A stretch of DNA of 37,820 nucleotides from an uncultured Chloroflexaceae bacterium (lineage in GTDB: Bacteria; Chloroflexota; Chloroflexia; Chloroflexales; Chloroflexaceae). The stretch is taken from positions 15,825 to 53,644 of the forward strand of contig CAZVEN010000021.1 in assembly GCA_964626155.1 (NCBI GenBank). The letters run 5' to 3'. Below are positions 1,888-32,344 of the stretch, piece by piece (positions within the stretch are counted from its first letter, which is position 1; every line of letters starts with the position of its first letter). The position numbers and the translations under genes are program-made. The notes below the pieces were generated by a model. That model was not told the DNA's origin. It did not search any database and worked only from the letters and a program-made list of their open reading frames with translations.

Positions 1888-1920
1888 ATGTGATACTATC
1901 TTGTTTCATGAAGACCTCGC

Positions 1921-1960
1921 GCAAAGACGCAAAGAACGCAAAGCTACAAAGAAGGGAACA
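1921..1960. repeat. octamer-repeat element copy (CGCAAAGA/ACGCAAAG tandem)
   Basis: CGCGCAAAGACGCAAAGAACGCAAAGCTACAAAG. It belongs to the dispersed (T/C)CT(C/T)TGCG family also seen at 2745, 11641, 15838, 20040, 22693, 30521 and 31400. Confidence 0.6.
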
Positions 1961-2021
1961 ACCAATGCTTTGCTGGTACGCTGCAATGCTGCGAACTGTC
2001 TTGGAAACGGTTGCTCGTTTC

Positions 2022-4598: not shown

Positions 4599-6248
4599 AT
4601 GCACACGTTATTGGTGCAAGGGCAACCTATTACAGATGCATGTGTGACAGAGTGGCAGGAAGTTGCATTTTCTTGTGTGCCACCGCACAATTGCACACTG
4701 GCGTTGACGATAGGCGATACATTGCACCCTGTGCTGCTGCAACCATTTTTGCTGCCGGGCGACCCGGCATGGCGCTGGCGCTGGAATCCGCAGAATACTG
4801 TCGGACATGTTGCCTTTACTTTGGCTATAACCGGGCCAGATGGGCACGTTGACTATGAATATGGGCATCTGCATGTTGTGCCACGCAAGATAGACCAAGA
4901 GCAGTATCAGGCTTTGCTTGATGATTTGCAACGGTTCATACGCTTGCTTGTCTTTTCTTTGCCGGGGAGTATGGTAGGGACACGGGAGAGTGATGCACCA
5001 GAAGAAATACCAACTGAATGCAGCATTATAGAGATGTATTATCGCTTCTTGCGAGAGCGTTTGACAACGCTTGAACAGGCAGTACGGCACATTGCTCAAC
5101 ATCCACATACCCAAACCTGTGTAGGCACGAAACGGGAACCGGTGGGACACGCACATGATTTTTCGCAGGTTGGCGAAGATGTTGCGCGTGGGCAGCCGGT
5201 GTACCCATTTCCAATGCATGCGGTACCGCTGTTTCGACAAGCTCAACAACCGCGCAACAACATACACCATCTGCCAGAGGAAGTTCCCCAGAGTGCTATG
5301 CTAGTAGATGTGGATACGTATGAAAACCGGCTGCTCAAGTGGGTGTTGCATGAGCTATGGCACCGCGCACAGGCAATTGCTACGCTGACGTCTCATGAAA
5401 AAGCGTTTTTACCACAGGTGACACAAGGGTACACAGAGGAAATACACCATAGTGTGCAACGGTTGGCGCAGGTGCGTTCGCTGCCGTTGTTGGAAGGGGT
5501 CAAGACGCTTTCTGTTTTCCATGGGGCAACGTACACTATTCGACATAACCCTTCCTATCGTCAAATCTACCGCTTATGGCAAGAGTTACACACTCTGCCC
5601 GCGCTCGATGTTGAGAGCGATATATTCCATGTGCCAGTGCATGAACTACCACAGTTGTATGAAGTGTGGTGTGTGGTGCAGGTGATGGCGGCTTTGCTGG
5701 AGCAACCGGGCGTTCGTGTGCGTACACAGCGTTTTATCGCACAGAAGGATGGGAGTCGCGGGCATACGTTTGGTCTTGTTGAGGATGTTCCATTGCTTAT
5801 GCTCAATTGGCACGATGTGATTATTTGTTTGCGCTATCAGCCACGCTATTACCCGTTGCACAGTGCGCACATTGCACAGTGTGAGGAGCATACAGAGACA
5901 ATAGGCTCTCTCGATTGTCACATGCACAAGCCAGATATTGCTATAGAGATGATGCATCCTGCACAATTGCCGTCTGTGTTGCTGTTTGATGCCAAATATC
6001 GCCTGACGGCCAGTGGGGGCGTGCCAGAAGATGCGCTGGCCGATATGTATACCTACCTTGGGAGTATTGGAACATATCCCGATAAACGTGTTGTGCAACA
6101 AGCTGCGGTGCTCTATCCGGGCGAGAGGGTTGCAGAGCGCTATGCAAGTGGCGTGGGTGTGTTGGGGCTTGTGCCGGGCTGCCGGGCTAGGCTGCGCGAG
6201 TGGGTGGCATTGTGGCTACTAAGAAATGGTGCGAAAGGCGTAGGATAG
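4599..6248 (+). CDS. PD-(D/E)XK nuclease-like protein (McrC/DUF2357-like) of unknown function
   Basis: 549-aa ORF that starts 8 bp after the DUF2207 stop, so the two are probably translationally coupled. The C-terminal region has HKPDIAIEM...LLFDAKYR (D...E.K nuclease core) preceded by LPQLYEVWCVVQVMAAL, which resembles DUF2357/McrC-type nucleases. The last ~30 nt overlap the GGCTTCTAGC repeat element. Confidence 0.55.
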   Translation: MHTLLVQGQPITDACVTEWQEVAFSCVPPHNCTLALTIGDTLHPVLLQPFLLPGDPAWRWRWNPQNTVGHVAFTLAITGPDGHVDYEYGHLHVVPRKIDQEQYQALLDDLQRFIRLLVFSLPGSMVGTRESDAPEEIPTECSIIEMYYRFLRERLTTLEQAVRHIAQHPHTQTCVGTKREPVGHAHDFSQVGEDVARGQPVYPFPMHAVPLFRQAQQPRNNIHHLPEEVPQSAMLVDVDTYENRLLKWVLHELWHRAQAIATLTSHEKAFLPQVTQGYTEEIHHSVQRLAQVRSLPLLEGVKTLSVFHGATYTIRHNPSYRQIYRLWQELHTLPALDVESDIFHVPVHELPQLYEVWCVVQVMAALLEQPGVRVRTQRFIAQKDGSRGHTFGLVEDVPLLMLNWHDVIICLRYQPRYYPLHSAHIAQCEEHTETIGSLDCHMHKPDIAIEMMHPAQLPSVLLFDAKYRLTASGGVPEDALADMYTYLGSIGTYPDKRVVQQAAVLYPGERVAERYASGVGVLGLVPGCRARLREWVALWLLRNGAKGVG

Positions 6249-11608: not shown

Positions 11609-11719
11609 GCATACTATAGCAACCATAAACGAAAAACCGTTGTATCTCTCTGCGTCTTTGCTTCTCTGCGCCTCTGTGTTAAACATGGTACCAATTCATG
11701 GATGGTTGCTATAGTATGC
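11609..11719. repeat. MITE-like octamer-repeat element with perfect 18-bp terminal inverted repeats
   Basis: GCATACTATAGCAACCAT at 11609-11626 is the exact reverse complement of 11702-11719. The interior TCTCTGCGTCTTTGCTTCTCTGCGCCTCTGTG holds the octamer tandem repeats. The right half is homologous to 20075-20160. Confidence 0.65.
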
Positions 11720-11806
11720 AGTTGCGTCGTTGCCTCTTTACATTGTGGCGCAAGATTTATACAATAGAGAAACGCCTTCACTCCTAGTCTACCGTCGGAG
11801 GCACTG

Positions 11807-12119: not shown

Positions 12120-13106
<987 letters not shown>

Positions 13107-13225: not shown

Positions 13226-13825
13226 ATGAGCTATAGTGACTTTACCATAGAAACGCTGAAAGAAAAACTTGGTGTATACCTTGTTGAAGACAGCATCCTT
13301 TTTCCAGAGCCACCATCATACCCTGTCCCCACATTCTTGACAGAGTTACTGCAACGCTACGTGCCATTGGCAACGTTTATCAATACCGAAAAAGCCCGTT
13401 CGGAATTGATCATAGCTCCCATACTTGTTGAGCTAAAATTCCACGTGCAGAAAAAAATCAGCTTGTTCTCTGGCACAGAGTTCAACGTTGACCAGCAAGC
13501 AGGGCTAACCGGGCGATGCGATTATATTATCTCGCTGTCGCCAGAGCAATTGATGCTCAGTGCGCCCGTCATTATTGTTGTTGAAGCAAAAAATGAGAAT
13601 ATCATGAGCGGTATACCCCAGTGCATCGCCACAATGATAGCGGCTATGCGCTTCAACATACAAAAGGGCAACCCAATTGAAACTATCTATGGCATTGTGA
13701 CAACTGGCAACTTATGGCGATTTTTGAAACTAGACTGCGACAACCATGCGTATATTGACACGATGGAGTACCACATACAACGCATTAATACCATCTGGAG
13801 CATCGTCAATGCCATTATTGTATAA
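13226..13825 (+). CDS. PD-(D/E)XK nuclease superfamily protein, HsdR-N-terminal-domain-like
   Basis: 199 aa. ...CDYIISL...PVIIVVEAKNE matches the D...(D/E)xK core; the layout resembles type I restriction HsdR_N-like standalone proteins. Confidence 0.55.
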   Translation: MSYSDFTIETLKEKLGVYLVEDSILFPEPPSYPVPTFLTELLQRYVPLATFINTEKARSELIIAPILVELKFHVQKKISLFSGTEFNVDQQAGLTGRCDYIISLSPEQLMLSAPVIIVVEAKNENIMSGIPQCIATMIAAMRFNIQKGNPIETIYGIVTTGNLWRFLKLDCDNHAYIDTMEYHIQRINTIWSIVNAIIV

Positions 13826-13945
13826 GAGCCTAACGGTAGCACCGGAAGCCGGCGCTTAGGGGTTCCCCCACAACCGTGCTCGTCGCTGGCAGACCTATCA
13901 GAGAAGAAACGAACCTACGCGGTACAACCTAGGTGGGCGGAAGAG

Positions 13946-13973
13946 TATTCGTTTATTCGTTTCCTATTCGTGG
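13946..13973 (+). promoter_or_regulatory. three direct repeats TATTCGT(T/G) with ~10-bp periodicity upstream of the WD40-DUF29 operon
   Basis: TATTCGTT at 13946, TATTCGTT at 13955 and TATTCGTG at 13966, 50-80 nt upstream of the 14025 start. This direct-repeat layout is typical of OmpR-type regulator sites. Confidence 0.25.
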
Positions 13974-14024
13974 ACGGCACGGCTATGTGGCTTAATGAAA
14001 AAAGAGAAACATGGAGAAATACTC

Positions 14025-15236
14025 ATGCACATACGCTTTGTGCTCATATACTGTCTATTGATAGTCGGCATCGCCATAGCCGGCTGTGGACCAGCATCGC
14101 AAACAAACGACGCCCAAACCCACGACGCTTCGCCACAGCCAGCCGCTGAGAGTACATCTCAGCCATCTACCCATGTCGCAACAACCTCAAATGTTACATC
14201 TACCATTGATGGTGATAATGACGATAATATGCCTGTTGACGCCTTGCTTTCCACACCAACACACACAGCAACAGTGACAGAGAACCTAACGCCAACCACG
14301 ACCATGACTATCACCCCAACCCAAATGCCTACTCCCACACCTGCCTACACATTTGGAGAGGAAATCGTCACATTGAGCGGCCACGCCGGAGGGTTGTGGG
14401 CCGTTGCATTAAGTCCTGATGAAACCCTCCTTGCCACCGCTTCAGCCGATGGCACAGCCAAGCTCTGGGATATGGCCACCTTTCAAGAAGTGTACACATT
14501 GCAAGGGCATAGCGCCGCTGTGCGCTCAGTCGCATTTAGCCCCGATGGTACGCTCATCGCCACCGGTTCAGCAGATACCACCATAAAGCTATGGCAACGC
14601 GATACGGGCGAAGAAATAGCCACCCTCAGCGGTGGGCACACCGATGAAGTTGCAGCAGTCGCATTCAGCCCCGATGGGACCCTCCTCGCCAGCGGTTCAA
14701 AGGATGCCAACCTATGCCTATGGGATGTGGAGAGCATGATGCTTGTAGATACCCTCACTGGACATGAAAACTGGATTGAGGGCATCGCGTGGAGTCCGGG
14801 CGGCACACTGTTGGCAAGCGGCTCACTCGATGAAACAGTACGCTTGTGGGATGTAGAGCGTAGAGAGAATATCGCCATATTATATGGGCATACGCATTGG
14901 GTCTTACCTGTTACGTTTAGCCCCGATGGGTCGCTCATAGCCAGTGGTGCCAACGATGCCACGGTGCGTATCTGGTCTGTGGCCACAGGCGAACATGAGC
15001 GCGTGCTAGAAGGGCACACCAACGAAGTGCGCTCAGTCGCCTTTAGCCCCGAGGGGGAGATACTAGCCAGTGGTTCCGAGGATGAGACCGTCATACTATG
15101 GCGCGTATCCGATGGCGAAGAGATTGCACGGCTACAACCCGGCTCCTCGGCCGCATGGGTGCTCTTCAACGCCGATGGCTCTATACTCTTTACCGCATTG
15201 GGCAATGGGCTACTCAAAGTGTGGTATGTCGGGTGA
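14025..15236 (+). CDS. WD40-repeat lipoprotein (7-bladed beta-propeller) with Thr/Pro-rich linker
   Basis: Signal peptide MHIRFVLIYCLLIVGIAIAGC with a lipobox, then a T/P-rich linker, then 7 WD repeats (GH...WD/WS pattern). The ORF track starts at 13995; 14025 has a GGAG RBS. Confidence 0.9.
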   Translation: MHIRFVLIYCLLIVGIAIAGCGPASQTNDAQTHDASPQPAAESTSQPSTHVATTSNVTSTIDGDNDDNMPVDALLSTPTHTATVTENLTPTTTMTITPTQMPTPTPAYTFGEEIVTLSGHAGGLWAVALSPDETLLATASADGTAKLWDMATFQEVYTLQGHSAAVRSVAFSPDGTLIATGSADTTIKLWQRDTGEEIATLSGGHTDEVAAVAFSPDGTLLASGSKDANLCLWDVESMMLVDTLTGHENWIEGIAWSPGGTLLASGSLDETVRLWDVERRENIAILYGHTHWVLPVTFSPDGSLIASGANDATVRIWSVATGEHERVLEGHTNEVRSVAFSPEGEILASGSEDETVILWRVSDGEEIARLQPGSSAAWVLFNADGSILFTALGNGLLKVWYVG

Positions 15237-15257
15237 CGTGGGATTGAGAGGCAAAAA

Positions 15258-15779
15258 ATGGAAGAACTTGTACAATTGCGTGAACATATCCAACAGCAAC
15301 GCTATCGTGAGGCACTTGATGTACTTGACGACATGGATGATATGAGTAAGAAATCTATTCTTGACGCCATTCAAACATTTCTGGAGCATATGTTGGTATA
15401 CATCATCAAAAACGATGTTGAGCAACAGATGACCAATGCATGGGCCGCGTCAATTCGTGACTCGCTGCTACAGATACGCAAGCGCAACCTCAAAGGCAAT
15501 CAGGTGTCGTGGTATCTTGAGCGCGATGATTGGGATGCCCGCCTAGACGAAGCATATGAAGTTGCGATAGCTGATGCGAGTGTTGAAGTGATGGATGGTC
15601 TCTATACGCCATTTGAACTCTATGAACAGGCGCACTGTGATGTGGTATTAGAACGTGCGCGGTGTCTGCTTGTGCTCATGTATGACCACCCACCCAAGTC
15701 GTTGCCACAGGTTATCAACGACTACTTGAGCACGCTCCCCGGCGGGCATACATGGCGATACGGAAACAAACGGGGTTAA
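15258..15779 (+). CDS. DUF29 family protein
   Basis: 173 aa. N-terminal MEELVQLREHIQQQRYREALDVLDDMDDMS fits the DUF29 profile. A paralog lies at 20141-20578. It starts 21 bp after the WD40 stop and is probably co-transcribed. Confidence 0.75.
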   Translation: MEELVQLREHIQQQRYREALDVLDDMDDMSKKSILDAIQTFLEHMLVYIIKNDVEQQMTNAWAASIRDSLLQIRKRNLKGNQVSWYLERDDWDARLDEAYEVAIADASVEVMDGLYTPFELYEQAHCDVVLERARCLLVLMYDHPPKSLPQVINDYLSTLPGGHTWRYGNKRG

Positions 15780-15837
15780 TAAAGTGAGTTTGTATGACTG
15801 TTCAAAATGAACCAATAACTCAGCGTCATACTGCTCT

Positions 15838-15985
15838 CAGCGCCTCTGCGTTGCATCTTAACGCAAAAGCGCAAAGGAGCAAAGACGCAAAGGCCGGAAG
15901 GCATGGTACGTAGATTATCTCTCTATGCAAGAAGGTGAAGCTGGTCCCATATTAGAAGTCTTCAATGCCAGTTGCATCTTAACGC
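15838..15985. repeat. octamer-repeat element copy
   Basis: CAGCGCCTCTGCGTTGCATCTTAACGCAAAAGCGCAAAGGAGCAAAGACGCAAAGG. TTGCATCTTAACGCA is repeated at 15972. Confidence 0.6.
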
Positions 15986-15992
15986 AGTGGTT

Positions 15993-16259
15993 TTAGCATG
16001 GAGGTACCGAGGTTCTGGATGGTGCATGTTTAAGCCATAGAGCATCAGCGCACAGCTCTATTTCCCCTGGCCATTGAATATAGCGCCCACGTTCGCCAAC
16101 TGCAACCTGTGCAAAAAACGGTTGGTCTTTCAATGGTGCAAATATACCCCCACGTTCAATATAGGGGTTACAATCAACAATGATTGTGTCACCTGATGCA
16201 TACGTTAAACGCACATGATAATCTGGTTCGGCAACCACATGGGTAATAGTGTACAACAT
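15993..16259 (-). CDS. DUF2442 domain-containing protein
   Basis: MLYTITHVVAEPDYHVRLTYASGDTIIVDCNPYIERGGIFAPLKD.PFFAQVAV..RGRYIQWPGEIELCADALW matches the DUF2442 pattern. Start chosen at the internal Met with an AGAGGGG RBS. Confidence 0.8.
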   Translation of the reverse strand: MLYTITHVVAEPDYHVRLTYASGDTIIVDCNPYIERGGIFAPLKDQPFFAQVAVGERGRYIQWPGEIELCADALWLKHAPSRTSVPPC

Positions 16260-16337
16260 GACAATATACCCCTCTATTCTAGGATGACACGAATACACAA
16301 ATAGGTGGTACTCACACCACCACAGCTATGTGCAGGT

Positions 16338-16359
16338 GAGACGTTGCGTGCAACGTCTC
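16338..16359. repeat. GAGACGTTGC-GT-GCAACGTCTC palindrome directly 3' of the NACHT gene
   Basis: Perfect 10-bp arms, from the same family as 8443-8528. Confidence 0.8.
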
Positions 16360-16362
16360 AAC

Positions 16363-16444
16363 CACTCAATCGCCCCATCGCCCCATCGCTCAATCGCTCA
16401 ATCCCTGACCCCTGACCCCTGACCCCTGACCCCTGACCCCTGTC
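16363..16444. repeat. compound microsatellite: 8-mers (CTCAATCG/CCCCATCG x5), then 7-mer CCCTGAC x5 (+1 degenerate) overlapping the last 18 codons of the NACHT gene
   Basis: Read directly from the sequence. The 7-mer array (16403-16444) encodes ...GVRGQGSGVRGQG on the minus strand. Confidence 0.9.
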
Positions 16445-19400
16445 ACCGCTTGCACAACCGCCCTCACCTGCGCCGGGTACGCCTGTGCCAGCAACTCACA
16501 CATAGCGTAGGCAGACTCGACGGAGTAAGCACAGGGGATGAGCAACTGCTTGAAATGGGACAAATCGCCCGCCTCTAGCAACTCCTCAGCATCAATCGTC
16601 TGTACGGTTTGGAGTGCGGCAGGAAAATCGCCTGCACGTGCTTGGGCTGTGACGATAGCTGACAACGCTTTCACACGTCTTCGCCCATGGTCAATCGTCT
16701 GTGCGGTGTGGAGCGCGGCAGTGGAATAGCCTACACGTGCTTGGGCTGTGACGATAGCTGCCAGTTCCTTCGCACGGTCCCAATCATCATCAATCATCTG
16801 GGCGGTGTGGAGTGCGGCAGAAAAATCGCTTGCCTGTGCTTGGGCTGTGGCGATAGCTTCCAGTACCTTAGCACGCTTTTCCGCATCGTCAATTGTCTGC
16901 GCGGTGTCGAACGCGGCAGTACACGTTTGACGAGCATCATCGTGTAAACCGGCCTGTGCTTGTGCTGTGGCGATGTCTGCCAGTGCCTTAGCACGCTTTT
17001 CCGCATCGTCAATTGTCTGCGCGGTGTCGAACGCGGCAGTACACGTTTGACGAGCATCATCGTGTAAACCGGCCTGTGCTTGTGCTGTGGCGATGTCTGC
17101 CAGTTCCTTAGCACGCTCTTCCGCATCGTCAATCGTCTGTGCTATCTGGAGTGCAACCGCAAACACATGGCGCTCAGCCAGCTTGTCACACAAGTCTGCA
17201 CGTTTGTAATCATCCAGCAATTGTTGTTGCAAGCTGACAAGCATGTGCTCATCAATGCCAGACACAACCGGTAACAACATAACCGCATATTTTGCTTGCT
17301 CAACATCTAGTCGTGGCAACCGCTCCGCCAGCACACGCTCCAGCCTTTTGCGTGCATCGGATTCATGTCCATTGTCATGCAATTCCCATGCCAGCAGTAG
17401 ATACCACAACACTCGCTGCTTGGCATCAACCAAGTCTGCCAATGCCCATGCTCGTTCTATATTGCCTTCGCGTAATGCGTCGAGTGGGCTTTCTTGGGCA
17501 ATATCGTGTGCTTGGTATACGTGTAGCAACAGCATTCGTGCCATAGTGCCGGCGTCGTCACAGGTTGCGGCCCCCTCTAGCGCTACTTGTATAGTGCGTA
17601 GCGGTAGGTTTGGCTCGGTGGGGAAAGCAGTTGCTTGCTCCTGCTGGAAAATCTGATTTTCTGCAAGGTCATAGAGCGTTTGCCAATGCTGTGCTTGCTG
17701 TAGATGTTGGGCATAGTGGCGCAAGGCGTAGCGGCTATGGTGTTCTGTCCAGCGAAGGCAGTAATTTATCAATTCCTCCAGAAAGAGAACAGTTTTCCCT
17801 TTCAATTTGCGTTTTGTTAAATAGTTTTGAAAGCGCGGGTGACACAACGCATAACTACTATGACCTAGTTGTCCTCGGTGTTCTATGACAAAACGGCGCA
17901 CAGGGTCCAGTATTTGATCAAAAAACCATTCCATGTTTGGGTAGAGACGAAAAAGGTCCTCAGATGGCAGTGGACCAAGAGCTACCATCAAAATGCCTAG
18001 CAAGTTACGTATGTCCTCTTCATTCCGCAATGCTTTGCTCACTTGTTGCCACCAACCATCCAGGTAGCTCTCTAGCCCTGCGGGTTGTTGCGCTATCTGG
18101 GCCTCGCTTATGCGCCCATTGGCAATGTCCTTAACCAGATAGCGTACATAGAAGGGGTCGCCTTGCGAGACGCGCAGGATTTGTTGGAGGAAGTGTTCCC
18201 ACCCTAGCCCCCCCTGCGAGAGGGAATCGGGCATCTCCCTTTCGTCGGGGGGGCCGGGGGATGAATCGGGCATCTCCCCCCCGTGTACGGGGGGGACGGG
18301 GGGGGAATCCGCAATGGCTTTAAGCAACAGTTGCTCGATACCCGCTAGGTCAAGCGTTTCTAGGCGTATAGCCAGCACATCGGTTTGCGGCAACCCCAAG
18401 CGCTGTAGGTCGTCGCGCCCGGCCTGCTCGCGGGCCGAGAAGATGATGAACTTGCCCGTTGGTAGCTCACGCGGTATGTGTAGGTCACGGATAAAGTCAT
18501 CCTCGGCTTCGTCTAGCCCATCAATGACGAGTACGAGTGGGCGACCAGCCTGCACCAATGGCATGCGGAGTAGTTTGGCATACAGCGCTTCCAATTGTCC
18601 CGGTTCGTGTTCGGGTGGCAGGGTTGCTTCTATCTGATAGTAACTCAACATTTGTTCACACATTTGGCGCAGGAAATCTACGCGCCGATGCGTATTGTCG
18701 AGGCGGTTGAGGAAATACCAGCAGTAGCGCTCGTGTTCAGGCGCAACCAGGTTGGCTATCAGTGCCGTTTTGCCATAGCCCGATGGGCCGGTGATGAAGA
18801 CGTAGCCACGTGAACGGCTTGCCAAAAAGTTACGGATTTGTGCTAGTTCGTCATCGCGCCCGGCAAACAGCGTGTGGCGCTCGAAATAGTTGGTTTGCCC
18901 TTCGCGCAACTGGGCCAGTGTGGTGCGGCGTTGCGCGAGGAGCATGCCGGCCTGTATGGTGTAGTCGGGCATAGCAAGTCCACGGGTGAGCTTGCCAATC
19001 TCAGTGTGCAACGAATGCATCATGTCTTCAAGGTGTTGTACGCCTGTTTCTGTACGTGTAGCTATTGCCTCGGTGCGTTGGGTTGTTGTGTCAATAAAGG
19101 TGATGGTTTGCTCCATCCGTGTCAGTGTGTCTTTGAGGTGCTGCATGCTCTCGTGCAGAGGTTGCAAAGCTGTGTCTAGGGCGTCGTCGCCCGTGGGGTC
19201 ACGCTGGTTGGCAGGCTGAGTTTGCAATGTTTCTGCCCACTCCTGAAGCCATAGCACAACCTCGCGGATGTCATCAGTCGTTTGGCTTATCTGGCTTATC
19301 TGCACAGTGGTTTTGGCAAGGCTTTGCTGCCATAGCAATTGATATGCCCGCCATGCGCGTGTGCCTTGCTCGCTTGGGTCTTTCAACTCCTCCCGGAAGC

Positions 19401-20019
19401 GCAACATCCACTCATCGTAGAGATACTGGGCAATATGCTCAACTATACCAAGGGGTTGGTTGGTAAAAAAGTCGTCACGCAACTTTTGCACAAAGAGCGT
19501 ATTGGCTGTCGTTTGGGCTTCGTCAATGTGGTTGGCGTTCATTACCTGGGGGAGAATATGCACACAAGCGTGAATCTGGTCATTGAGATGTTCAAGCGTA
19601 ATGAGTTCGTCAGCGGTGCTTTGTGCTTCCTCATGCAGGCGACGCAATTGGTTGTGCAAGCGCGAACGTTGATCGGGGCGGCGCAAGTGGTTTAGCCATT
19701 GAGGTTGTGCCTCGCTCATGTTGAGCACATGGGCTATCGCTTCTGGGGTCGTAGCCCGTTCCAACAAGGTATGCCAATCGCGGTAGATTTGCTTTGCTGC
19801 TGCATTGAAGGCACGTGCGAGTGCTTTGGCAATATCGTGGTTGAGTGCGCCACGCTCGCTGAACCAGCCGGCCCGCCAACGCTGATAGCTCTGCTCGGCA
19901 AGGCTAGAAGCCCAATTCGTACCTACCCCACCAATAGATGCAAGCAGGTATTCAGATGCGCTTTCGGCTGTTTTCAGCCCAACAGTAGCAAGTGCGCCTG
20001 TGAGTATAATTTCGAGCAT
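16390..20019 (-). CDS. NACHT/STAND-family P-loop NTPase (bacterial NLR-like) with uncharacterized ~370-aa helical N-terminal region and C-terminal 40-aa helical repeat array
   Basis: 1209 aa. Walker A GPSGYGKT, Walker B LVLVIDGLDEA, then a helical/WH region, then at least 5 repeats of the form AQTIDDAEKRAKALADIATAQAQAGLHDDARQTCTAAFDT. No recognisable enzymatic motif in residues 1-370. Confidence 0.85.
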   Translation of the reverse strand: MLEIILTGALATVGLKTAESASEYLLASIGGVGTNWASSLAEQSYQRWRAGWFSERGALNHDIAKALARAFNAAAKQIYRDWHTLLERATTPEAIAHVLNMSEAQPQWLNHLRRPDQRSRLHNQLRRLHEEAQSTADELITLEHLNDQIHACVHILPQVMNANHIDEAQTTANTLFVQKLRDDFFTNQPLGIVEHIAQYLYDEWMLRFREELKDPSEQGTRAWRAYQLLWQQSLAKTTVQISQISQTTDDIREVVLWLQEWAETLQTQPANQRDPTGDDALDTALQPLHESMQHLKDTLTRMEQTITFIDTTTQRTEAIATRTETGVQHLEDMMHSLHTEIGKLTRGLAMPDYTIQAGMLLAQRRTTLAQLREGQTNYFERHTLFAGRDDELAQIRNFLASRSRGYVFITGPSGYGKTALIANLVAPEHERYCWYFLNRLDNTHRRVDFLRQMCEQMLSYYQIEATLPPEHEPGQLEALYAKLLRMPLVQAGRPLVLVIDGLDEAEDDFIRDLHIPRELPTGKFIIFSAREQAGRDDLQRLGLPQTDVLAIRLETLDLAGIEQLLLKAIADSPPVPPVHGGEMPDSSPGPPDEREMPDSLSQGGLGWEHFLQQILRVSQGDPFYVRYLVKDIANGRISEAQIAQQPAGLESYLDGWWQQVSKALRNEEDIRNLLGILMVALGPLPSEDLFRLYPNMEWFFDQILDPVRRFVIEHRGQLGHSSYALCHPRFQNYLTKRKLKGKTVLFLEELINYCLRWTEHHSRYALRHYAQHLQQAQHWQTLYDLAENQIFQQEQATAFPTEPNLPLRTIQVALEGAATCDDAGTMARMLLLHVYQAHDIAQESPLDALREGNIERAWALADLVDAKQRVLWYLLLAWELHDNGHESDARKRLERVLAERLPRLDVEQAKYAVMLLPVVSGIDEHMLVSLQQQLLDDYKRADLCDKLAERHVFAVALQIAQTIDDAEERAKELADIATAQAQAGLHDDARQTCTAAFDTAQTIDDAEKRAKALADIATAQAQAGLHDDARQTCTAAFDTAQTIDDAEKRAKVLEAIATAQAQASDFSAALHTAQMIDDDWDRAKELAAIVTAQARVGYSTAALHTAQTIDHGRRRVKALSAIVTAQARAGDFPAALQTVQTIDAEELLEAGDLSHFKQLLIPCAYSVESAYAMCELLAQAYPAQVRAVVQAVTGVRGQGSGVRGQGLSD
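16861..17100. repeat. two near-identical 120-bp direct repeats inside the NACHT gene (40-aa repeat units)
   Basis: 16861-16980 and 16981-17100 differ at one base. Flanking units are diverged copies. Confidence 0.9.
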
Positions 20020-20039
20020 AAACGCGCCCGCCTTCTTTT

Positions 20040-20140
20040 TTTATGAGCTCGCGCCAAGACGCAAGGAATGCAAAAATCACGAACCTTGTCTTTGCGTTGC
20101 GTCTCTGCATCTCTGCGCCTCTGCGTTGAAAATGTACATT
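20040..20140. repeat. octamer-repeat element copy (partial; right end homologous to 11660-11719)
   Basis: TCTCTGCATCTCTGCGCCTCTGCGTTGAAAATGTACATTTCATGTAGGGTTGCTATATGC. Confidence 0.6.
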
Positions 20141-20578
20141 TCATGTAGGGTTGCTATATGCCTGTATCATGCCAAATGCCTGTTGCTCAATAGCTGCTCG
20201 GTCCACCATTGTTGCCAGTTTTTCCTCGCTGTATGCTCCCCCGAATGCTTCCAGCGCGGCGTGTTTCAACGCAAGCGGGTAGGCATCATGGATTGTTTCG
20301 CGCATCGTGTCCTCGTCCAAATACGTTCCGCGTGCTTTGCGTCGCTTATTGGTCCTAACAATTTGGTCTATCGCATGGTATATGGACACATCACAAGAAC
20401 GGGTGGTACGATTCTCGGCAGATTGCTTTATAAGATGCAATAACAGGATAATGGTCAAACTATAAATTTTATTTACCTTATCGTCATGGCTCATTTCTTC
20501 CATCTCTCCGAGTAGCTCCATAGCTTCAGCATAGCGTTGGTTTTCCAAATGGTTGCGCAGTTGGAATAGTTCTTCCAT
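20141..20578 (-). CDS. DUF29 family protein (paralog of 15258-15779)
   Basis: MEELFQLRNHLENQRYAEAMELLGEMEEMS; 145 aa; AAGGAAGG RBS. Confidence 0.75.
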   Translation of the reverse strand: MEELFQLRNHLENQRYAEAMELLGEMEEMSHDDKVNKIYSLTIILLLHLIKQSAENRTTRSCDVSIYHAIDQIVRTNKRRKARGTYLDEDTMRETIHDAYPLALKHAALEAFGGAYSEEKLATMVDRAAIEQQAFGMIQAYSNPT

Positions 20579-20616
20579 AATCCTTCCTTACTGTTGTGAG
20601 CGCCTGTTCTAAGATG

Positions 20617-20638
20617 AGGGCGTGCATTTGCACGCCCT
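20617..20638. repeat. GGGCGTGC/GCACGCCC hairpin (same stem as 13164-13183)
   Basis: AGGGCGTGCATTTGCACGCCCT, 53 nt downstream of the SPFH gene stop. Confidence 0.5.
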
Positions 20639-20684
20639 ACCTCTGTGTTCTCTGTGGTAAAAACCTACTCGTGAAAGGTTTATC

Positions 20685-21992
20685 CTACCCTCTATTGTTC
20701 TCCTCGTCGCTGCCCCCCGTACCGGGCGCTGGTTGTTGCGGCGGCTGCCCTTGCTGTTGCTGGGGTGGGTAGCCCTGTTGCTGTGGTGGGTAGCCCTGTT
20801 GTGGCGGGTAGCCCTGTTGTGGTGGGTAGCCCTGTTGTGGCGGGTAGCCCTGCTGTTGAGGTGGGTAGCCCTGCTGTGGCGGGTAGCCCTGCTGTGGCGG
20901 ATAGCCCTGTTGTGGCGGGTAGCCTTGCTGTGGCGGGTAGCCCTGTTGTTGAGGTGGATAACCCTGTTGTTGAGGTGGATAACCTTGTTGTTGTGGCGGA
21001 TAGCCCTGCTGTGGCGGGTAGCCCTGTTGTGGCGGGTAGCCCTGCTGTGGCGGATAACCCTGTTGTGGCGGATAGCCCTGTTGTGGCGGGTAGCCCTGTT
21101 GTGGCGGGTAGCCCTGTTGTGGTGGGTAGCCCTGTTGTGGCTGCATAGACTGATTCATCATATTGCCCATACCCATGCCCATAGCCAACCCCATGCCCGC
21201 TTCCATAGGCCCGCCAGCACCACCGGGGTTGGCGGCGGCCACACCCATAGCCTCAGCAGCCTTATAGCGCATATAGTCCGATTGTGTTGCCGCCATCATC
21301 GTTTGCGCCTCTTGGGCCTTCTGCACACGTTCCCACGTTGCTTCGTCTACCGATATTTCCTCTACATAAAAGTCATTTATCTTCAGCCCAATTTCCTCAA
21401 ACAAGCTAGATAGCTTCACCCGCGAAGCCGCATTCAGCTCCTCCGTCAGAGTTTGCAAGTCAATAACCGACGTTTTCTGAGACGTGACAAGCTTGCGCAT
21501 AATAGAAACAATCCTACCGCGCATATACTTCGTCAAATCTCTCGTACTGTAAACCCCTTGCTGTCCCACAATCTCATTAACAAATGAAGCCGGGTCGGCT
21601 ACCTCGCAAGAATAGCCCCCAAAAGCACTCAGTTGTGTCATACCGATAAAAGGTTCTGGGTCTTTGTACATCACCTTGCCCATACCCCACTTACCTTCAA
21701 ATCGTTTTTCCGTATTGACAAACACAACTTCAGCTTGAAACGGCGTCTTGCCACCCGTTACCCACCCAACAATCCCGGCCAGTATGGGAATATTGGCAGT
21801 GCTGATAGTGTGTCGGCCCGGGCCGAGCACATCGCGTGCTTTGCCTTCATAGAAAAAGAGCGCTACCTGCCCCTCACGGACAATAACTTGAGACCCAATG
21901 CGAAAATCGCCGGGCCCATATTCCGGCTCACGGTGAACAATCTCTTCGCCGGAAGAGTCAATAAATTCAACAACATCAATAAATCGTGGCAT
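20685..21992 (-). CDS. SPFH/band-7 domain protein (COG4260-like) with C-terminal 20x QQGYPP low-complexity tail
   Basis: N-terminal [51 protein letters not shown] resembles COG4260 SPFH proteins. Residues ~286-410 are (Q)QQGYPP repeats; there is no C-terminal Zn ribbon. Confidence 0.8.
20757..21147. repeat. 18-bp (occasionally 21-bp) tandem repeat array, ~20 units, encoding QQGYPP
   Basis: GGTGGGTAGCCCTGTTGT variants repeat head to tail. The reverse-strand ORFs 20733-21413 and 20765-21148 are artifacts of this array. Confidence 0.9.
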
Positions 21993-22061
21993 GTACCTTC
22001 CCTTTCATCTTTCATGAGTGCGTTGGGTAAGCTTCTAGCCTACCCACACATAGTGCTTACT

Positions 22062-22556
22062 TTATGCTTGCTTGCCATAGTAGACAAGTGCTTGGCGTTC
22101 ATCAAATTGCTCGTTTAGTCCATCCACGAGCCTTTGCAGTGATGCGATAGCTTCAGCAAAACTATCAGTGCCGAGGTTTTTTTCAGCAAATGCTATTTGT
22201 TCCTGCAATATCGGCACACTGTCTGCTAATTTGGCATCAAATTCATAGATACGGTCCAGGTCGGCTTCGGCTATTTTCACCTCGCTAAACATAGGCGAAT
22301 AGCCTTGCACGGCGCTTTGTAGCCGTGATATAAACCGGTTGAGGGTGCGGTTCACCTCTTCCAATGCAGAGACATAGTGCAGTCCGCCACTATCCATAGC
22401 TTGTTGGGAGAGGCGAGTGATGTTTTTCTGTTCGGCTTCATACTGCTGGCTCAAATGCCTACGCAACACCTCATCGGCATCACGGCGTTTTTCTTTCGAT
22501 GAGTAGCCTTCGTAGCCTGGAATGATACCCATGAGTTTGTTCAGTATATTTCCCAT
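22062..22556 (-). CDS. hypothetical coiled-coil protein (164 aa), probably co-transcribed with the SPFH gene
   Basis: The internal start MGNILNK has a GGAGAC RBS; the ORF track N-extension is rejected. 70-bp gap to the SPFH start on the same strand. Confidence 0.55.
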   Translation of the reverse strand: MGNILNKLMGIIPGYEGYSSKEKRRDADEVLRRHLSQQYEAEQKNITRLSQQAMDSGGLHYVSALEEVNRTLNRFISRLQSAVQGYSPMFSEVKIAEADLDRIYEFDAKLADSVPILQEQIAFAEKNLGTDSFAEAIASLQRLVDGLNEQFDERQALVYYGKQA

Positions 22557-22692
22557 ATGTAAGGGTCTCCTTCTACCAATGACGAATAACACGATAGAGA
22601 GCATAGCACGTCATCAAATACTACAATCATTGTACCTTATTTGCCGTGAAAAACAAAGGGGGGGGATGGAAGTGTTCGTAAACAAGTTTTTA

Positions 22693-22760
22693 CCACAGAG
22701 AACACAGAGAACACAGAGAGTGCTTTTCTCTTCGTGTTCTTTGTGCCTCTGTGGTGCTCT
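22693..22760. repeat. inverted heptamer-repeat element CCACAGAGAACACAGAGAACACAGAGAG / CTCTTCGTGTTCTTTGTGCCTCTGTGG
   Basis: The two arms can pair. Related to 2745-2790 and 20655-20668. Confidence 0.6.
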
Positions 22761-22886
22761 ATTTGCTAACTACCAAGACACAGAGGACAAAGAGGACATG
22801 GATGATAAACAGAACATATGGGGGTTGTGCTTGGCAATAGAAATATCGTGGTGAGAGGATAGGTAGCAGTTTGTGAGACTGCTACG

Positions 22887-24005
22887 CTACCCCTCTGCCA
22901 AGGCAGAAATATCAGCAAGAGAAAGACCGGTGATGTCGGCAATGAGCGATGGCTCAAAGCCCTTAGCTTGTAAGTTGCGCACAGTGTTGCGCTGTGTTTC
23001 GCGTGTACGTTCGCGTTCCAAGCGAGCAAGCTCTTCGGCTTCGCGTGTACGTTCGCGTTCCAAGCGAGCAAGCTCTTCGGCTTCGCGTGCGCGTTCATCG
23101 GCTTCGCGTGCGCGTTCGTCGGCTTCATCCAAGCGCTGAACAACATACTCTGCGCGTTCTTCTGCTATGCGGCGAGCTTGCACCATTTCTGTATAATCTA
23201 CAACCTTGTGTCCTTGCTCATGAAACCAGCATATATCATCTTTGCCCAGACCTACATACATTTTAGCGGCTTCAATCCACACACGCCCGTGTGTATCAGG
23301 TTGGCACAAATCATAGAAACCGAGCCTATTCAAGCAATAGACGTATAGCTTAGGAAGGGTACCTTCAGGTGCATCATCATCGGGAAGGTCTAAGACGATA
23401 TAGACAGCAATGCCCGCCTCTGCATAGATTTCCCATTTTGAGCGTAACCCAGGATGTTCCCGTTTTTTGTATTCAAAGAGGCGTAGCTCTTTTTCTGTCA
23501 GCAAAGAAGGGTCCATATCTAAACAGCGTGTTCCGGGCGAGGTAATTTCCAAAACCACTTCTACTTTAGCGCCTTCGTCTTTGACATAAAACGTGCTCCA
23601 GTTGTAATTTTTTGGTCTTTTGATGCCAGAGACCAGAGCAGCATCGGGTGCAACTGGACGTAGACCGGGTAAACCCAAATCTATACGCATTTCTTTTAAG
23701 ACCACCATAGATGGTTTATGTTGGCTAGAGGCCCTCATAGCATTGTACGAATAGGTTTGAGAAATGGTATGGCGATTACGAACAGACACCTCATCCCCCT
23801 CCTCTGGGAACAATACATCCAAGATAGTCAATGGGCGATATTCGCTTATTTCGGTGCCATCGGGAAGCACCCGGGTAGAATAACGCCAGCCAAATTCTTC
23901 TTCCTCTGCTCTTTCTGTTGTTGTTGTTGGTATGAAGGTTCTTTTTTTGGTAAACGGCTTTGTATATTCTAGCACGTCGGTTGTTGTAGGATAGACAAAA
24001 GACAT
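22887..24005 (-). CDS. Uma2 family endonuclease with extended N-terminus and ER-rich coiled-coil C-terminal tail
   Basis: RPVAPDAALVSG...VVLEITSPGTR..D...K...YAEAGIAVYIVLD matches the Uma2 core. The tail carries a perfect 48-bp tandem duplication (EELARLERERTREA x2) and ends in LIADITGLSLADISALAEG. AAGGAGG RBS. Confidence 0.75.
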   Translation of the reverse strand: MSFVYPTTTDVLEYTKPFTKKRTFIPTTTTERAEEEEFGWRYSTRVLPDGTEISEYRPLTILDVLFPEEGDEVSVRNRHTISQTYSYNAMRASSQHKPSMVVLKEMRIDLGLPGLRPVAPDAALVSGIKRPKNYNWSTFYVKDEGAKVEVVLEITSPGTRCLDMDPSLLTEKELRLFEYKKREHPGLRSKWEIYAEAGIAVYIVLDLPDDDAPEGTLPKLYVYCLNRLGFYDLCQPDTHGRVWIEAAKMYVGLGKDDICWFHEQGHKVVDYTEMVQARRIAEERAEYVVQRLDEADERAREADERAREAEELARLERERTREAEELARLERERTRETQRNTVRNLQAKGFEPSLIADITGLSLADISALAEG

Positions 24006-24304: not shown

Positions 24305-25171
24305 ATGGTTCAAGCAATGATAGGGATAATTGGTGGCAGTGGCTTGTATGGTATGAAAGAACTCGAAAACGTAGAAGAGGTAACGCTTGAAACGCCCTAT
24401 GGCACCCCAAGTGATGCCTATGTTGTAGGTACCTTAGGTGGGCAGAACGTAGCCTTCTTACCGCGTCATGGGCGTGGTCATCGTTTCATGCCCACCGAAG
24501 TACCTAGCCGTGCCAATATCTACGGTTTCAAAAAGCTTGGTGTCAAATACCTCATTTCCGTCAGCGCTGTTGGCAGTCTCCGCGAAGACTACGCGCCCGG
24601 TCATGTGGTCATTCCCGACCAACTCTTTGACCGCACCAAAGGCATTCGTCCCTTCACATTCTATGGTGATGGCATCGTAGCACATCTCGTTTTCGACAAA
24701 CCCTACTGCCCCATATTGAGTGAAAAAATACACCAAGCTGCACAAGCATCTGGAGCAACCATGCATCGTGGGGGAACATATGTATGCATGGAAGGACCGC
24801 AGTTCTCAACCCTAGCCGAAAGCGAAGAAAACCGTCGCCGGGGGCATGCGCTCATTGGCATGACCGCTTTGCCCGAAGCAAAGCTTGCGCGTGAAGCCGA
24901 AATAGCCTACGCCACCATGGCCATGGTAACGGATTATGACTGTTGGCACCCAGAACATGAATCCGTAACAATAGACATGGTCATATCCGTATTAATGGCC
25001 AACGTCGAGCTATCGCAACGCATTGTTCGTGACATCATACCACTGATTGGCGAAGGGTTTGAAAGCCCGGCCCACAACGCCATGGAACATGCCATCATCA
25101 CAGACCGTAGCACCATTCCCGCAGCCACGCGTGAGCGGGTAGACTTACTCGTTGGCAAATATCTAAGCTAA
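24305..25171 (+). CDS. mtnP: S-methyl-5'-thioadenosine phosphorylase
   Basis: IGIIGGSGLY, then TPYG.PSD, PRHGRGH, TMEGPQFST-like segments; 288 aa; GAAGGAG RBS. Confidence 0.93.
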   Translation: MVQAMIGIIGGSGLYGMKELENVEEVTLETPYGTPSDAYVVGTLGGQNVAFLPRHGRGHRFMPTEVPSRANIYGFKKLGVKYLISVSAVGSLREDYAPGHVVIPDQLFDRTKGIRPFTFYGDGIVAHLVFDKPYCPILSEKIHQAAQASGATMHRGGTYVCMEGPQFSTLAESEENRRRGHALIGMTALPEAKLAREAEIAYATMAMVTDYDCWHPEHESVTIDMVISVLMANVELSQRIVRDIIPLIGEGFESPAHNAMEHAIITDRSTIPAATRERVDLLVGKYLS

Positions 25172-30520: not shown

Positions 30521-30660
30521 TTGCATAAACCACAAGACATCTCGCAGCATGACAGCGTACCAGCAAAGAATTGCCTGTTCCCTTCTTTGTACCTGTGTAT
30601 TCTTTGCGTCTTTGCACAAAATCTCACTAAAAAAAGACGTTCACACCAACCACTATGCAG
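30521..30660. repeat. ~100-bp dispersed repeat copy A (contains octamer TCTTTGCG core)
   Basis: AGCGTACCAGCAAAGAATTGCCTGTTCCCTTCTTTGTACCTGTGTATTCTTTGCGTCTTTGCAC...AAAAAAGAC aligns with 31400-31530 in the same orientation. Confidence 0.8.
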
Positions 30661-30672
30661 CATCCGTCACTG

Positions 30673-31317
30673 TCACTGCCGGCTTTGCCAATCGGCTAGG
30701 AAACGCTCAATGCCCTTATCGGTCAAAGGGTGCATCATTCCTAGCTGAAGCACCTTAAAGGGACAGGTTGCAATATCTGCACCAGCCAACGCACTCTCTA
30801 CAATATGCCGTGGGTGCCGGATAGATGCCGATAGTATTTTTGTTGTCATGTTGGCCTTTTTATAAACACCACTAATCTCACGGATGAGACTCATACCATC
30901 TACGCCGGTGTCGTCTACACGCCCCACAAAGGGGCTAATCAGAAAAGCGCCAGCCCGCGCTGCCAGAAGCGCCTGCACCGGATTAAAACACAATGTCACA
31001 TTTGTTTTGATGCCATGCTTGGCCAATTCATAGACAGCCTTCAATCCCTCGGTTGTCGAGGGTATCTTGATGACAATATTGGGGTGCCATTGCGCAATAT
31101 CCTTACCTTCATTGATCATCCCGCCAGCTTCAAGCGAAATAACTTCGGCGCTGATAGGACCATCTACCAAAGATGCTATCTCCTGAATAATAGCCTTGAA
31201 ATCTGCACCTTTTTCCTTGGCTATTAAGGTAGGGTTTGTTGTCACACCACTCAGTATACCCCAACTTGCTGCTTCACGTATCTCGTCCAAGTTCGCAGTA
31301 TCGAGATAAATTTCCAT
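30673..31317 (-). CDS. tal: transaldolase / fructose-6-phosphate aldolase family (short, ~215 aa type)
   Basis: [13 protein letters not shown]..., a Schiff-base Lys region IKIPST.EG, FVGR; start set at the internal Met (GAAGGGA RBS). Confidence 0.9.
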
Positions 31318-31399
31318 GTCACACTTATCCCTTCTAAACCTATACATGTACTATACAGTATACAACTGCATGCCCCCATTATACCAGCGACAAGAGGGA

Positions 31400-31530
31400 C
31401 GCAATAAACATCTCAAGACAGCTCACACCCTTAGAGCGTACCAGCAAAGCATTGCATGTTCCCTTCTTTATAGCTTTGCGTTCTTTGCGGCTTGGCGCAA
31501 GGTCCTCATGAAAAAAGAGCATAAAAGAAC
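31400..31530. repeat. ~100-bp dispersed repeat copy B
   Basis: Direct repeat of 30521-30660. It lies inside the spurious N-terminal extension of ORF 31316-32344. Confidence 0.8.
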
Positions 31531-31582
31531 ATACGTACTTAGCCCTATTGTAATCCCCATATATCTATGGTATGATAATTCT

Positions 31583-32344
31583 ATGGAAGAGCGTATGATG
31601 ACAGCACATATTCTGGTTGTTGAAGACGATAAAGCAACACGCACTGCTATCGTCTCCCAACTGCAATATACTGGCTACCACGTTACGCAAGCAAGCGATG
31701 GAGAAACAGCTCTCACCCTGCTAGAAACACACCTATTCGATGTCGTCATCACCGATATTATTATGTACCAGGTTGATGGAATAGCGATTTTACAAACAGC
31801 CCGGATGCAAGCCTATCATCCAGAAGTCATCTTGCTCACCGGCTATGGCTCTCTTGATACAGCCATGATAGCCTTGCGACAAGGTGCATTTGACTATCTG
31901 CAAAAACCCTGCCCGACAGACCAATTGTTAGCCTGCGTACAGAGCGCTATACACCGCCATGCATCTCAACAAAAAATGCGCCAAGCGGTTACGATGCTAT
32001 CTACAAGCTCAGAGAACAACCGTATAAACAAAGAATTACTACCACCAAGCATCCACATTGGTGCGCTTACGATTGGACCTTCACGCACCGAGGTTTTTTT
32101 TCATGGGCAACCTATCCAAGTAACACCCATTGAATATGCCATACTATCGTATTTGGCCATCCGGAAAGGGCATGTATGCCCGTGTCAAGATATTGTGTTG
32201 CATACACACCACCTTGAAACCAACGAAGAGCATGCACAACGAGTGGTGCGTTCGCATATCTCCAACCTACGGAAAAAATTTGGTGCTGCGTACCTTATAT
32301 CAAAACGTGGATACGGGTACATGCTTATAGACCCCCATACCTAA
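31583..32344 (+). CDS. OmpR-family response regulator (receiver + winged-helix), orphan
   Basis: HILVVEDD...D.....TDIIM; LTGYGSLDT; C-terminal trans_reg_C (PIEYAILSYL...ISNLRKK). Start chosen at MEERMMTAH; the upstream 89 codons are repeat-derived. Confidence 0.85.
   Translation: MEERMMTAHILVVEDDKATRTAIVSQLQYTGYHVTQASDGETALTLLETHLFDVVITDIIMYQVDGIAILQTARMQAYHPEVILLTGYGSLDTAMIALRQGAFDYLQKPCPTDQLLACVQSAIHRHASQQKMRQAVTMLSTSSENNRINKELLPPSIHIGALTIGPSRTEVFFHGQPIQVTPIEYAILSYLAIRKGHVCPCQDIVLHTHHLETNEEHAQRVVRSHISNLRKKFGAAYLISKRGYGYMLIDPHT

Follow-up and report, generated by a model that had tools for sequence, protein, structure and literature searches.

Nuclease and NTPase genes that lie in a row between metabolic genes raise the question of whether such a row is an island, and in particular an island of defence. 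We addressed this question for a block of approximately 11 kb (about 13.2 to 24.0 kb) in a 37,820-nucleotide (nt) stretch of Chloroflexaceae DNA. The whole stretch, referred to here as the window, has a G+C content of about 50%, and the block makes up 28.5% of it. A preliminary description had placed the block between an aldo/keto reductase (AKR) gene ending at 13106 and mtnP, the gene for methylthioadenosine (MTA) phosphorylase, starting at 24305. Matches to Pfam Aldo_ket_red and TIGR01694 bear out both limits. The same description took these two genes for conserved housekeeping flanks and the block for a variable or defence island. Our analysis leads to another reading. The block does not form a single mobile element, and it does not form a coherent defence system either. 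With a probability of roughly 60%, we regard it as an accretion zone of independent accessory modules in the chromosome of a Chloroflexaceae-related bacterium. The zone probably came about by piecemeal gene gain and loss over a long period and not by recent acquisition as a whole.

Nine plausible genes were recognised in the block, and they comprise at least six unrelated modules. Genes of accessory type follow one another nine times here and are scattered elsewhere in the window, where the flanks are mostly metabolic and regulatory. The modules can be considered independent since three of them each occur elsewhere without the others. The gene for an SPFH protein and its upstream neighbour, g180, have homologues (64% and 60% identity, respectively) that are adjacent on ENA contig L169, again with g180 as the upstream partner; the pair sits there between an ABC transporter gene and a Zn-ribbon gene, with no other block gene present. 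For the large signal transduction ATPase with numerous domains (STAND), a homologue, P0123, that is 40% identical across 93% of the query is encoded on its own amid ZnuABC and P-type ATPase genes. Finally, homologues of g199, a solo PD-(D/E)xK nuclease gene, are found at 42-52% identity on 24 cyanobacterial plasmids, and the homologue examined on one of these plasmids is a solo gene with TnpB and ParA as neighbours. The g180-SPFH pair, in particular, is kept together as a unit of two genes and moves independently of the rest of the block.

We then compared the flanks and junctions with those of relatives, although database coverage of this organism is sparse. Among 185,579 species genomes, the best matches to mtnP lie in a Chloroflexaceae metagenome-assembled genome (MAG; 73% identity) and an Oscillochloris MAG (67%). 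Neither shares an mtnP neighbour with the window on either side, and in the Chloroflexaceae MAG mtnP lies between genes for arginyl-tRNA synthetase and F420 biosynthesis. Matches to mtnP in JGI metagenomes reach at most 60% identity. The AKR gene is patchily distributed, with matches of 74-80% named from cyanobacteria, Blastocatellia, Gemmatimonas and Methylomirabilis. Its neighbours differ in all three related lineages found: two homologues of 80% identity (P0007 and P0003) have unrelated neighbourhoods, and a homologue of 91% occurs solely on contigs no longer than 1.6 kb. The contigs compared for AKR were L083-L087, L171 and L177. Since its neighbours differ in every lineage checked, the evidence suggests that the AKR gene is itself horizontally mobile. 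Since the neighbours of both genes differ in every relative found, AKR and mtnP are not stable anchors, and their description as conserved housekeeping flanks has to be given up. Local gene order in the host genome is fluid.

Exact look-ups of the window proteins returned nothing beyond short Logan contigs of a single run, SRR7048223. The one close view of the locus comes from two short Logan contigs of relatives, L171 and L174, about 86-88% identical in DNA; relatives at this level of identity were seen in runs SRR28370020, SRR28093312, SRR28369933 and SRR28089850. On L171, which carries an AKR gene 88.5% identical in DNA, homology ends at the AKR stop codon; the 546 nt that follow are non-coding and bear no relation to the window, so that g199 is missing from this position. 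On L174, the 3' end of the Uma2-like nuclease gene at the right end of the block (Uma2_b) adjoins g180 as in the window, at 81-86% nucleotide identity. With one junction different and another kept, the block is neither wholly strain-specific nor wholly conserved.

The kept junction bears on the alternative that survives best, namely that the locus is ordinary, stably inherited chromosome in which Uma2, DUF29, WD40 and STAND genes are numerous lineage-wide, so that a run of nine is merely background. This account, which we consider possible but doubtful, gains from the native composition of the block and from the presence within it of the genome's own repeats. Two of the four nuclease-type genes of the window, one of the Uma2 and one of the PDDEXK_7 type, lie outside the block, and housekeeping neighbourhoods are likewise non-syntenic with the nearest genomes. 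It does not accommodate well the relative in which g199 is missing directly after AKR, nor nine consecutive accessory-type genes where the flanks are mostly metabolic or regulatory.

A stricter alternative, which we judge unlikely, is that the block is a defence island, that is, a hotspot of several working anti-phage systems, made up here of the PD-(D/E)xK and Uma2 nucleases, the STAND protein, which resembles nucleotide-binding leucine-rich repeat (NLR) proteins, and the toxin-antitoxin-like DUF29 and DUF2442 proteins. PADLOC matches do concentrate in the block (PD_DExK for g199, E 1e-46; STAND_TPR for the STAND protein, E 1.7e-14), with none among the flank proteins, and the NLR-like modularity of the STAND gene points in the same direction. 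However, PADLOC found no complete defence system. Its STAND_TPR match is partial and covers the NTPase region only, and the protein matched none of the AVAST or full-length STAND models. The PD_DExK model describes a cas-associated accessory family, and an association of g199 with CRISPR was ruled out, as the window has neither a CRISPR array nor cas genes. The Uma2, DUF29 and DUF2442 proteins gave no PADLOC match at E ≤ 0.001, while the g180-SPFH pair and the WD40 lipoprotein do not belong to defence families. Furthermore, most STAND clades are not defence-associated, the defence-associated class comprising 198 of 589 clades, or about a third (PMC13581612). The defence-island reading rests on one candidate, the STAND gene, and the assertion that every block gene is of a multi-copy, selfish or defence type was too strong, since g180-SPFH and the WD40 lipoprotein are not of such families.

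Marks of mobility were sought with Pfam, NCBIfam and PHROGs scans, which identified no integrase, recombinase or transposase among the nine block genes. The window contains neither a tRNA nor a tmRNA gene, and no direct repeat of the att type pairs the junctions at 13.1-13.2 kb and 24.0-24.3 kb. A prophage was also rejected, as no PHROG match had a phage function. Measured against the pooled flank genes, codon usage lies at a distance of 0.11-0.20 in the genes of the block and of 0.10-0.22 in those of the flanks, and G+C at third codon positions (GC3) overlaps as well; the codon-usage comparison with the flanks that had been proposed therefore yields no island signature. The tetranucleotide distance is 0.111 for the block against 0.087 when unmasked and 0.098 against 0.086 when tandem repeats are masked. 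Because codon usage and GC3 are flank-like and the tetranucleotide signal shrinks on masking, there is no convincing sign of recent foreign origin. It is consequently very improbable that one horizontally acquired island, an integrative element or its remnant, was inserted between AKR and mtnP: the homology break at the AKR stop codon of the 88.5%-identical relative, the relatives of g199 on conjugative cyanobacterial plasmids and the higher unmasked tetranucleotide distance would fit such an event, but the marks of mobility are missing, codon usage and GC3 are indistinguishable from those of the flanks, the tetranucleotide signal stems mostly from tandem repeats inside genes, the modules occur separately elsewhere, and the upstream side of AKR differs in relatives too, so that the break may reflect AKR's own mobility.

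The block resembles defence and flexible islands in that nuclease-type and STAND genes run between metabolic genes and at least one junction differs in a close relative. Unlike such islands, it is without a complete defence system, an integrase, a tRNA gene, att sites or a compositional deviation; it is also conserved in part in a relative, and its flanks are not conserved anchors. Of the earlier interpretation as a variable or defence island, the enrichment in accessory-type genes and the differing left junction can be retained, whereas marks of mobility and a complete defence system are missing. The term "variable island" is plausible but unproven.

Several points weigh against the reading as an accretion zone. 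No assembled close relative spans the locus, so that the piecemeal gain and loss of genes is deduced and not observed. The nine consecutive accessory-type genes are a real enrichment and could reflect a recognised hotspot. A small tetranucleotide deviation is left over 16-22 kb after masking. For a role in defence, the STAND gene is a candidate on the strength of its sequence, and the minority of STAND clades classed as defence-associated has to be borne in mind. Moreover, the AlphaFold2 models of the STAND N-terminal domain and of g180 are of low confidence (predicted local distance difference test [pLDDT] scores of 59 and 63, respectively), with no fold match backing a specific activity.

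The STAND protein was examined domain by domain. The NACHT NTPase module scores 28.8 bits with Pfam NACHT (cut-off 26.7) and matches AAA_16 at E 1.1e-13; the Walker A (GPSGYGKT) and Walker B (LVLVIDGLDEA) motifs, as read from the translation, are both intact. The C-terminal repeats give weak TPR_12 and TPR_30 matches, and two of the 120-nt units are 96% identical in DNA. The protein therefore combines the features of the NACHT clade: a P-loop with Walker A and B motifs, a C-terminal repeat region and a variable N-terminal domain. It has 36 matches in a word-indexed search, which indicates a small family, and a sequence search of the PDB gave only a weak match to the P-loop of MalT.

The N-terminal domain of about 340 residues has no Pfam match. 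A profile built for it matched 558 protein clusters among 1.84 billion representatives, and in the 150 clusters listed the match begins within the first 60 or so residues, except in P0174, where there are two stretches. Scanning of 41 full-length members revealed fusions to NB-ARC (11/41), NACHT (8/41) and nSTAND1 (5/41), with TPR repeats in 17 and WD40 repeats in six of the members; in P0129, the domain is joined to iSTAND (inactive STAND). Conversely, P0122 has NACHT and repeat regions 50% identical to those of the STAND protein and begins with a Schlafen/AlbA_2 domain. These architectures show that the domain is shuffled among different clades of STAND NTPases and keeps to their N-terminus. 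Such shuffling is the hallmark of NLR-like conflict proteins, as in the NTP-dependent conflict systems described for multicellular bacteria (Kaur et al. 2020, PMC7159879). The domain carries conserved LNHD and AWRA motifs, and its AlphaFold2 model is all-helical, with core residues 60-230 at pLDDT 70-90. A structure search with this model gave no specific fold match.

The STAND protein is similar to bNACHT, Avs and the conflict systems of Kaur et al. in its variable N-terminal domain, its NACHT P-loop with Walker A and B motifs and its TPR-like C-terminal repeats. As in bacterial NLR-like STAND proteins, homologues exchange the N-terminal domain, P0122 carrying Schlafen/AlbA_2 in its place, and one homologue, P0123, is a stand-alone gene. 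The STAND protein differs in that PADLOC recognises it by the NTPase region only and its N-terminal domain has neither a Pfam family nor a fold match. It would be the one block gene product likely to act in immunity or conflict. Following the NLR and Avs model, its fast-evolving C-terminal repeats of 33 and 40 residues would bind a trigger, and NTP-dependent oligomerisation through the NACHT module would then activate the N-terminal helical domain. The Gly-rich hydrophobic start of this domain makes the membrane a possible site of action. The same N-terminus makes a membrane-directed effector role of the domain conceivable. That the domain is an undescribed, possibly membrane-active NLR effector is a tentative proposal, to which we give clearly less than even odds.

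Two further features of the STAND gene concern repeats in or just beyond its coding sequence. A GC-rich, in-frame insertion at 18208-18309 contains C7, G7 and G8 runs, can form a hairpin (-35.7 kcal/mol) and is missing from all nine aligned STAND homologues. It resembles a small palindromic element that inserted into the gene and left the reading frame intact. At the 3' end of the gene, the CCCTGAC repeats (5.7 copies) are coding and specify the extreme C-terminus of the protein (GVRGQG...), and the CTCAATCG repeats (5.9 copies) follow, mostly past the stop codon. Because the 7- and 8-nt units are not multiples of three, the tail of the protein would alter with repeat copy number. We take the heptamers to resemble the short tandemly repeated repetitive (STRR) heptamers of cyanobacteria.

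Another module of the block is the g180-SPFH pair. The Band_7_1 (PF13421) match of the SPFH protein spans 206 of the 211 profile positions, and its C-terminal tail consists of about 20 QQGYPP repeats (DNA 20722-21179; an 18-nt unit in 20 copies by Tandem Repeats Finder [TRF]). In the PDB, this tail matches the PPQGY-repeat tail of squid rhodopsin (2z73, E 7e-6). Homology to squid rhodopsin was rejected as low-complexity convergence, the PDB matches of the SPFH protein being confined to the tail. The partner, g180, has no Pfam match at E ≤ 0.01. Its AlphaFold2 model consists of four long helices, and Foldseek returned only non-significant helical matches for it (best E 0.086). A PspA- or ESCRT-III-like assignment was rejected, as the match to the ESCRT-III protein CdvB is non-significant with a template modelling (TM) score of 0.40. 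Profile and structure searches revealed no similarity of g180 to PspA, YdjG or YdjH and no detectable relative of established function.

YdjI (SamI) of Bacillus subtilis is a cytosolic SPFH protein that is encoded in the pspA-ydjGHI membrane-stress operon and links PspA to the membrane (PMC8581546). The SPFH protein of the block is like YdjI in belonging to Band_7_1 and in having a small conserved partner gene immediately upstream. It is unlike the YdjI/Psp module in that g180 does not resemble PspA/IM30, YdjG or YdjH and that the SPFH protein bears the long QQGYPP tail. The conserved pairing suggests a membrane-scaffold module, and the pair would most likely serve, in the manner of YdjI, as a membrane scaffold or in envelope stress. 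The further step, that it constitutes an unrecognised two-gene membrane module, we offer as a speculative suggestion. The g180-SPFH pair belongs neither with selfish genes nor with defence genes.

The remaining block genes encode nucleases, DUF proteins and a lipoprotein. The preliminary description had most gene identities right, as judged by Pfam and PADLOC, and missed the ninth gene, g180 (22062-22604). It took g199 for an HsdR_N-like nuclease. This assignment is not supported, since the HsdR_N profile (PF04313) is unmatched and no Pfam match was obtained even at E up to 10; nothing was found in NCBIfam or PDB sequence searches. The protein matches PADLOC PD_DExK instead and carries the motif E59...CDY...VEAK, in which a D...ExK motif is evident. 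The WD40 protein has a signal peptide, a lipobox (IAGC, from the translation) and a Thr/Pro-rich linker, followed by the WD40 repeats. Two DUF29 genes had been named, one of which, at 20141-20578, lies exactly at the Pfam gathering threshold. The other, g173, is a paralogue (E 2e-18) without a Pfam match, including in a relaxed-threshold search. The 5' ends of these two genes form an 89-nt inverted repeat (I3).

The likely true start of the DUF2442 gene is the ATG at 16259. DUF4160 and DUF2442 form a toxin-antitoxin-like pair. No open reading frame of at least 50 codons occurs in the 91 bp up to the STAND stop codon that could represent a DUF4160 partner, nor does one occupy the 213 bp that separate DUF2442 from its other neighbour. 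The last gene (22887-24005), named as a Uma2 nuclease, is indeed Uma2-like; it stays below the Pfam Uma2 (PF05685) gathering threshold (26.1 bits against 27) and is likely a distant member of the family. Its coiled-coil C-terminal tail is built of 42/21-nt repeats (TRF).

Uma2 (DUF820), DUF29 and DUF2442 are multi-copy families reported mainly from cyanobacteria. The window conforms to this pattern with its two Uma2-like and two DUF29-like genes. It departs from typical Uma2 and DUF29 proteins in that the scores are at or just below threshold, g173 has no match and Uma2_b has an added coiled-coil tail. The PD-(D/E)xK, Uma2, DUF29 and DUF2442 genes are probably members of multi-copy families scattered through such genomes. 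The coordinates of all features discussed are collected in Table 1.

Table 1. Genes, protein domains and repeat elements of the block, with its two boundary genes
Feature	Coordinates	Strand	Evidence
Aldo/keto reductase (AKR), left boundary gene	12120..13106	+	Pfam Aldo_ket_red, E 1.6e-82
g199, solo PD-(D/E)xK nuclease	13226..13825	+	PADLOC PD_DExK, E 1e-46
WD40 beta-propeller lipoprotein	13995..15236	+	Pfam WD40, E 3.3e-78, 6 stretches
g173, diverged DUF29-like paralogue	15258..15779	+	32% identity to DUF29 gene, E 2e-18
Intergenic hairpin, REP-like, with CGCAAAG-type motifs	15825..15910		D13, D15, I6; -29.4 kcal/mol, z -2.4
DUF2442 small protein	15993..16298	-	Pfam DUF2442, E 1.5e-10
NLR-like NACHT/AAA_16 STAND NTPase, 1,209 aa	16390..20019	-	Pfam AAA_16, NPHP3_N, NACHT
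Tandem repeats at STAND 3' end	16357..16442		7-nt CCCTGAC x5.7; 8-nt CTCAATCG x5.9 (TRF)
STAND C-terminal 33/40-aa repeats (99 + 120 nt)	16583..17191	-	TRF, repeat families D2, D4
In-frame GC-rich insertion in STAND gene, ~29 aa	18208..18309		42-nt unit x2.2 (TRF)
NACHT NTPase module of STAND protein, residues ~385-561	18337..18867	-	Pfam NACHT, AAA_16
STAND N-terminal domain, ~340 aa, all-helical, Gly-rich hydrophobic start	19000..20019	-	
Hairpin, REP-like, between DUF29 stop and STAND start	20045..20140		D13, D15, D16; -31.4 kcal/mol, z -2.0
DUF29-family small protein	20141..20578	-	Pfam DUF29 (PF01724), 22.6 bits vs cut-off 22.5
SPFH protein, Band_7_1 (YdjI) type, QQGYPP tail	20685..21992	-	Pfam Band_7_1, E 7.6e-47
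g180, helical protein, 164-180 aa	22062..22604	-	Weak NCBIfam LIMLP_15305 match, E 1.2e-10
Uma2-like PD-(D/E)xK nuclease (Uma2_b), coiled-coil C-terminal tail	22887..24005	-	Pfam Uma2, E 6.7e-6
mtnP (MTA phosphorylase), right boundary gene	24305..25171	+	TIGR01694 MTAP, 310.9 bits vs cut-off 274.85

A dense concentration of small repeats, tandem arrays and homopolymer tracts had also been taken as a sign of an island. Tandem repeats are indeed concentrated in the block: they cover 1,596 bases of the window, and 1,259 of these fall within it. They are almost all coding (the 99/120-nt units of STAND, the 18-nt tail of SPFH and the coiled coil of Uma2), as are the dispersed copies of WD40 blades, and homopolymers of at least 7 bases are only mildly enriched (10 of 23 in the block, with 6.6 expected; five of the ten lie within one 100-nt segment). 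The short dispersed repeats in the intergenic regions of the block belong to families found outside it too, and the presence there of hairpin repeats native to the genome counts against an island. Elements rich in CGCAAAG/CTTTGCG are located at gene ends at 11648-11720, 15825-15910 and 20045-20140 and are probably repetitive extragenic palindromic (REP)-like or terminator hairpins; the latter two bracket the DUF2442 and STAND genes. Rfam gave no matches in the window, and a promoter and terminator scan gave counts no higher than in shuffled sequence.

Another intergenic repeat of about 100 nt is present three times in the window, each time outside the block, at 1899-2003 (+), 30533-30637 (-) and 31414-31518 (-), with the copies 78-87% identical. 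A further copy lies at L174:901-952, right after the g180 stop codon, where contig L174 ends. The repeat looks like a REP-like element or a miniature inverted-repeat transposable element (MITE) that breaks short-read assemblies. At the edge of the window, positions 1-254 hold a 118-nt tandem repeat (2.2 copies, 97% identity) with an internal palindrome, GGGCTTGCC-GGCAAGCCC, beside a Uma2 gene at 318-1091.

That Uma2 gene lies outside the block, as does a gene combining DUF2357 with a PDDEXK_7 nuclease (4599-6248), directly 3' of a DUF2207 membrane-protein gene. The DUF2357/PDDEXK_7 type resembles McrC; no McrB-like partner lies beside the gene. On the other side of the block, a PAS/GAF histidine kinase gene lies between two response-regulator genes, at 31316-32344 and 36395-37249, which are paralogues, as a stretch of 140 nt (31773-31912 and 36570-36709) is common to both at 74% identity.

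As an island, the block matters little, as such clusters of accessory genes are common, and the family type of its genes alone does not establish an island here. What the analysis does add is a conserved partner for an SPFH protein of the YdjI type. It also draws attention to a recurrent N-terminal domain of STAND/NLR-like proteins that is without Pfam annotation, the only part of the block that might repay further study. Should it prove to be an effector, the known outputs of NLR-type immunity in bacteria would be extended.

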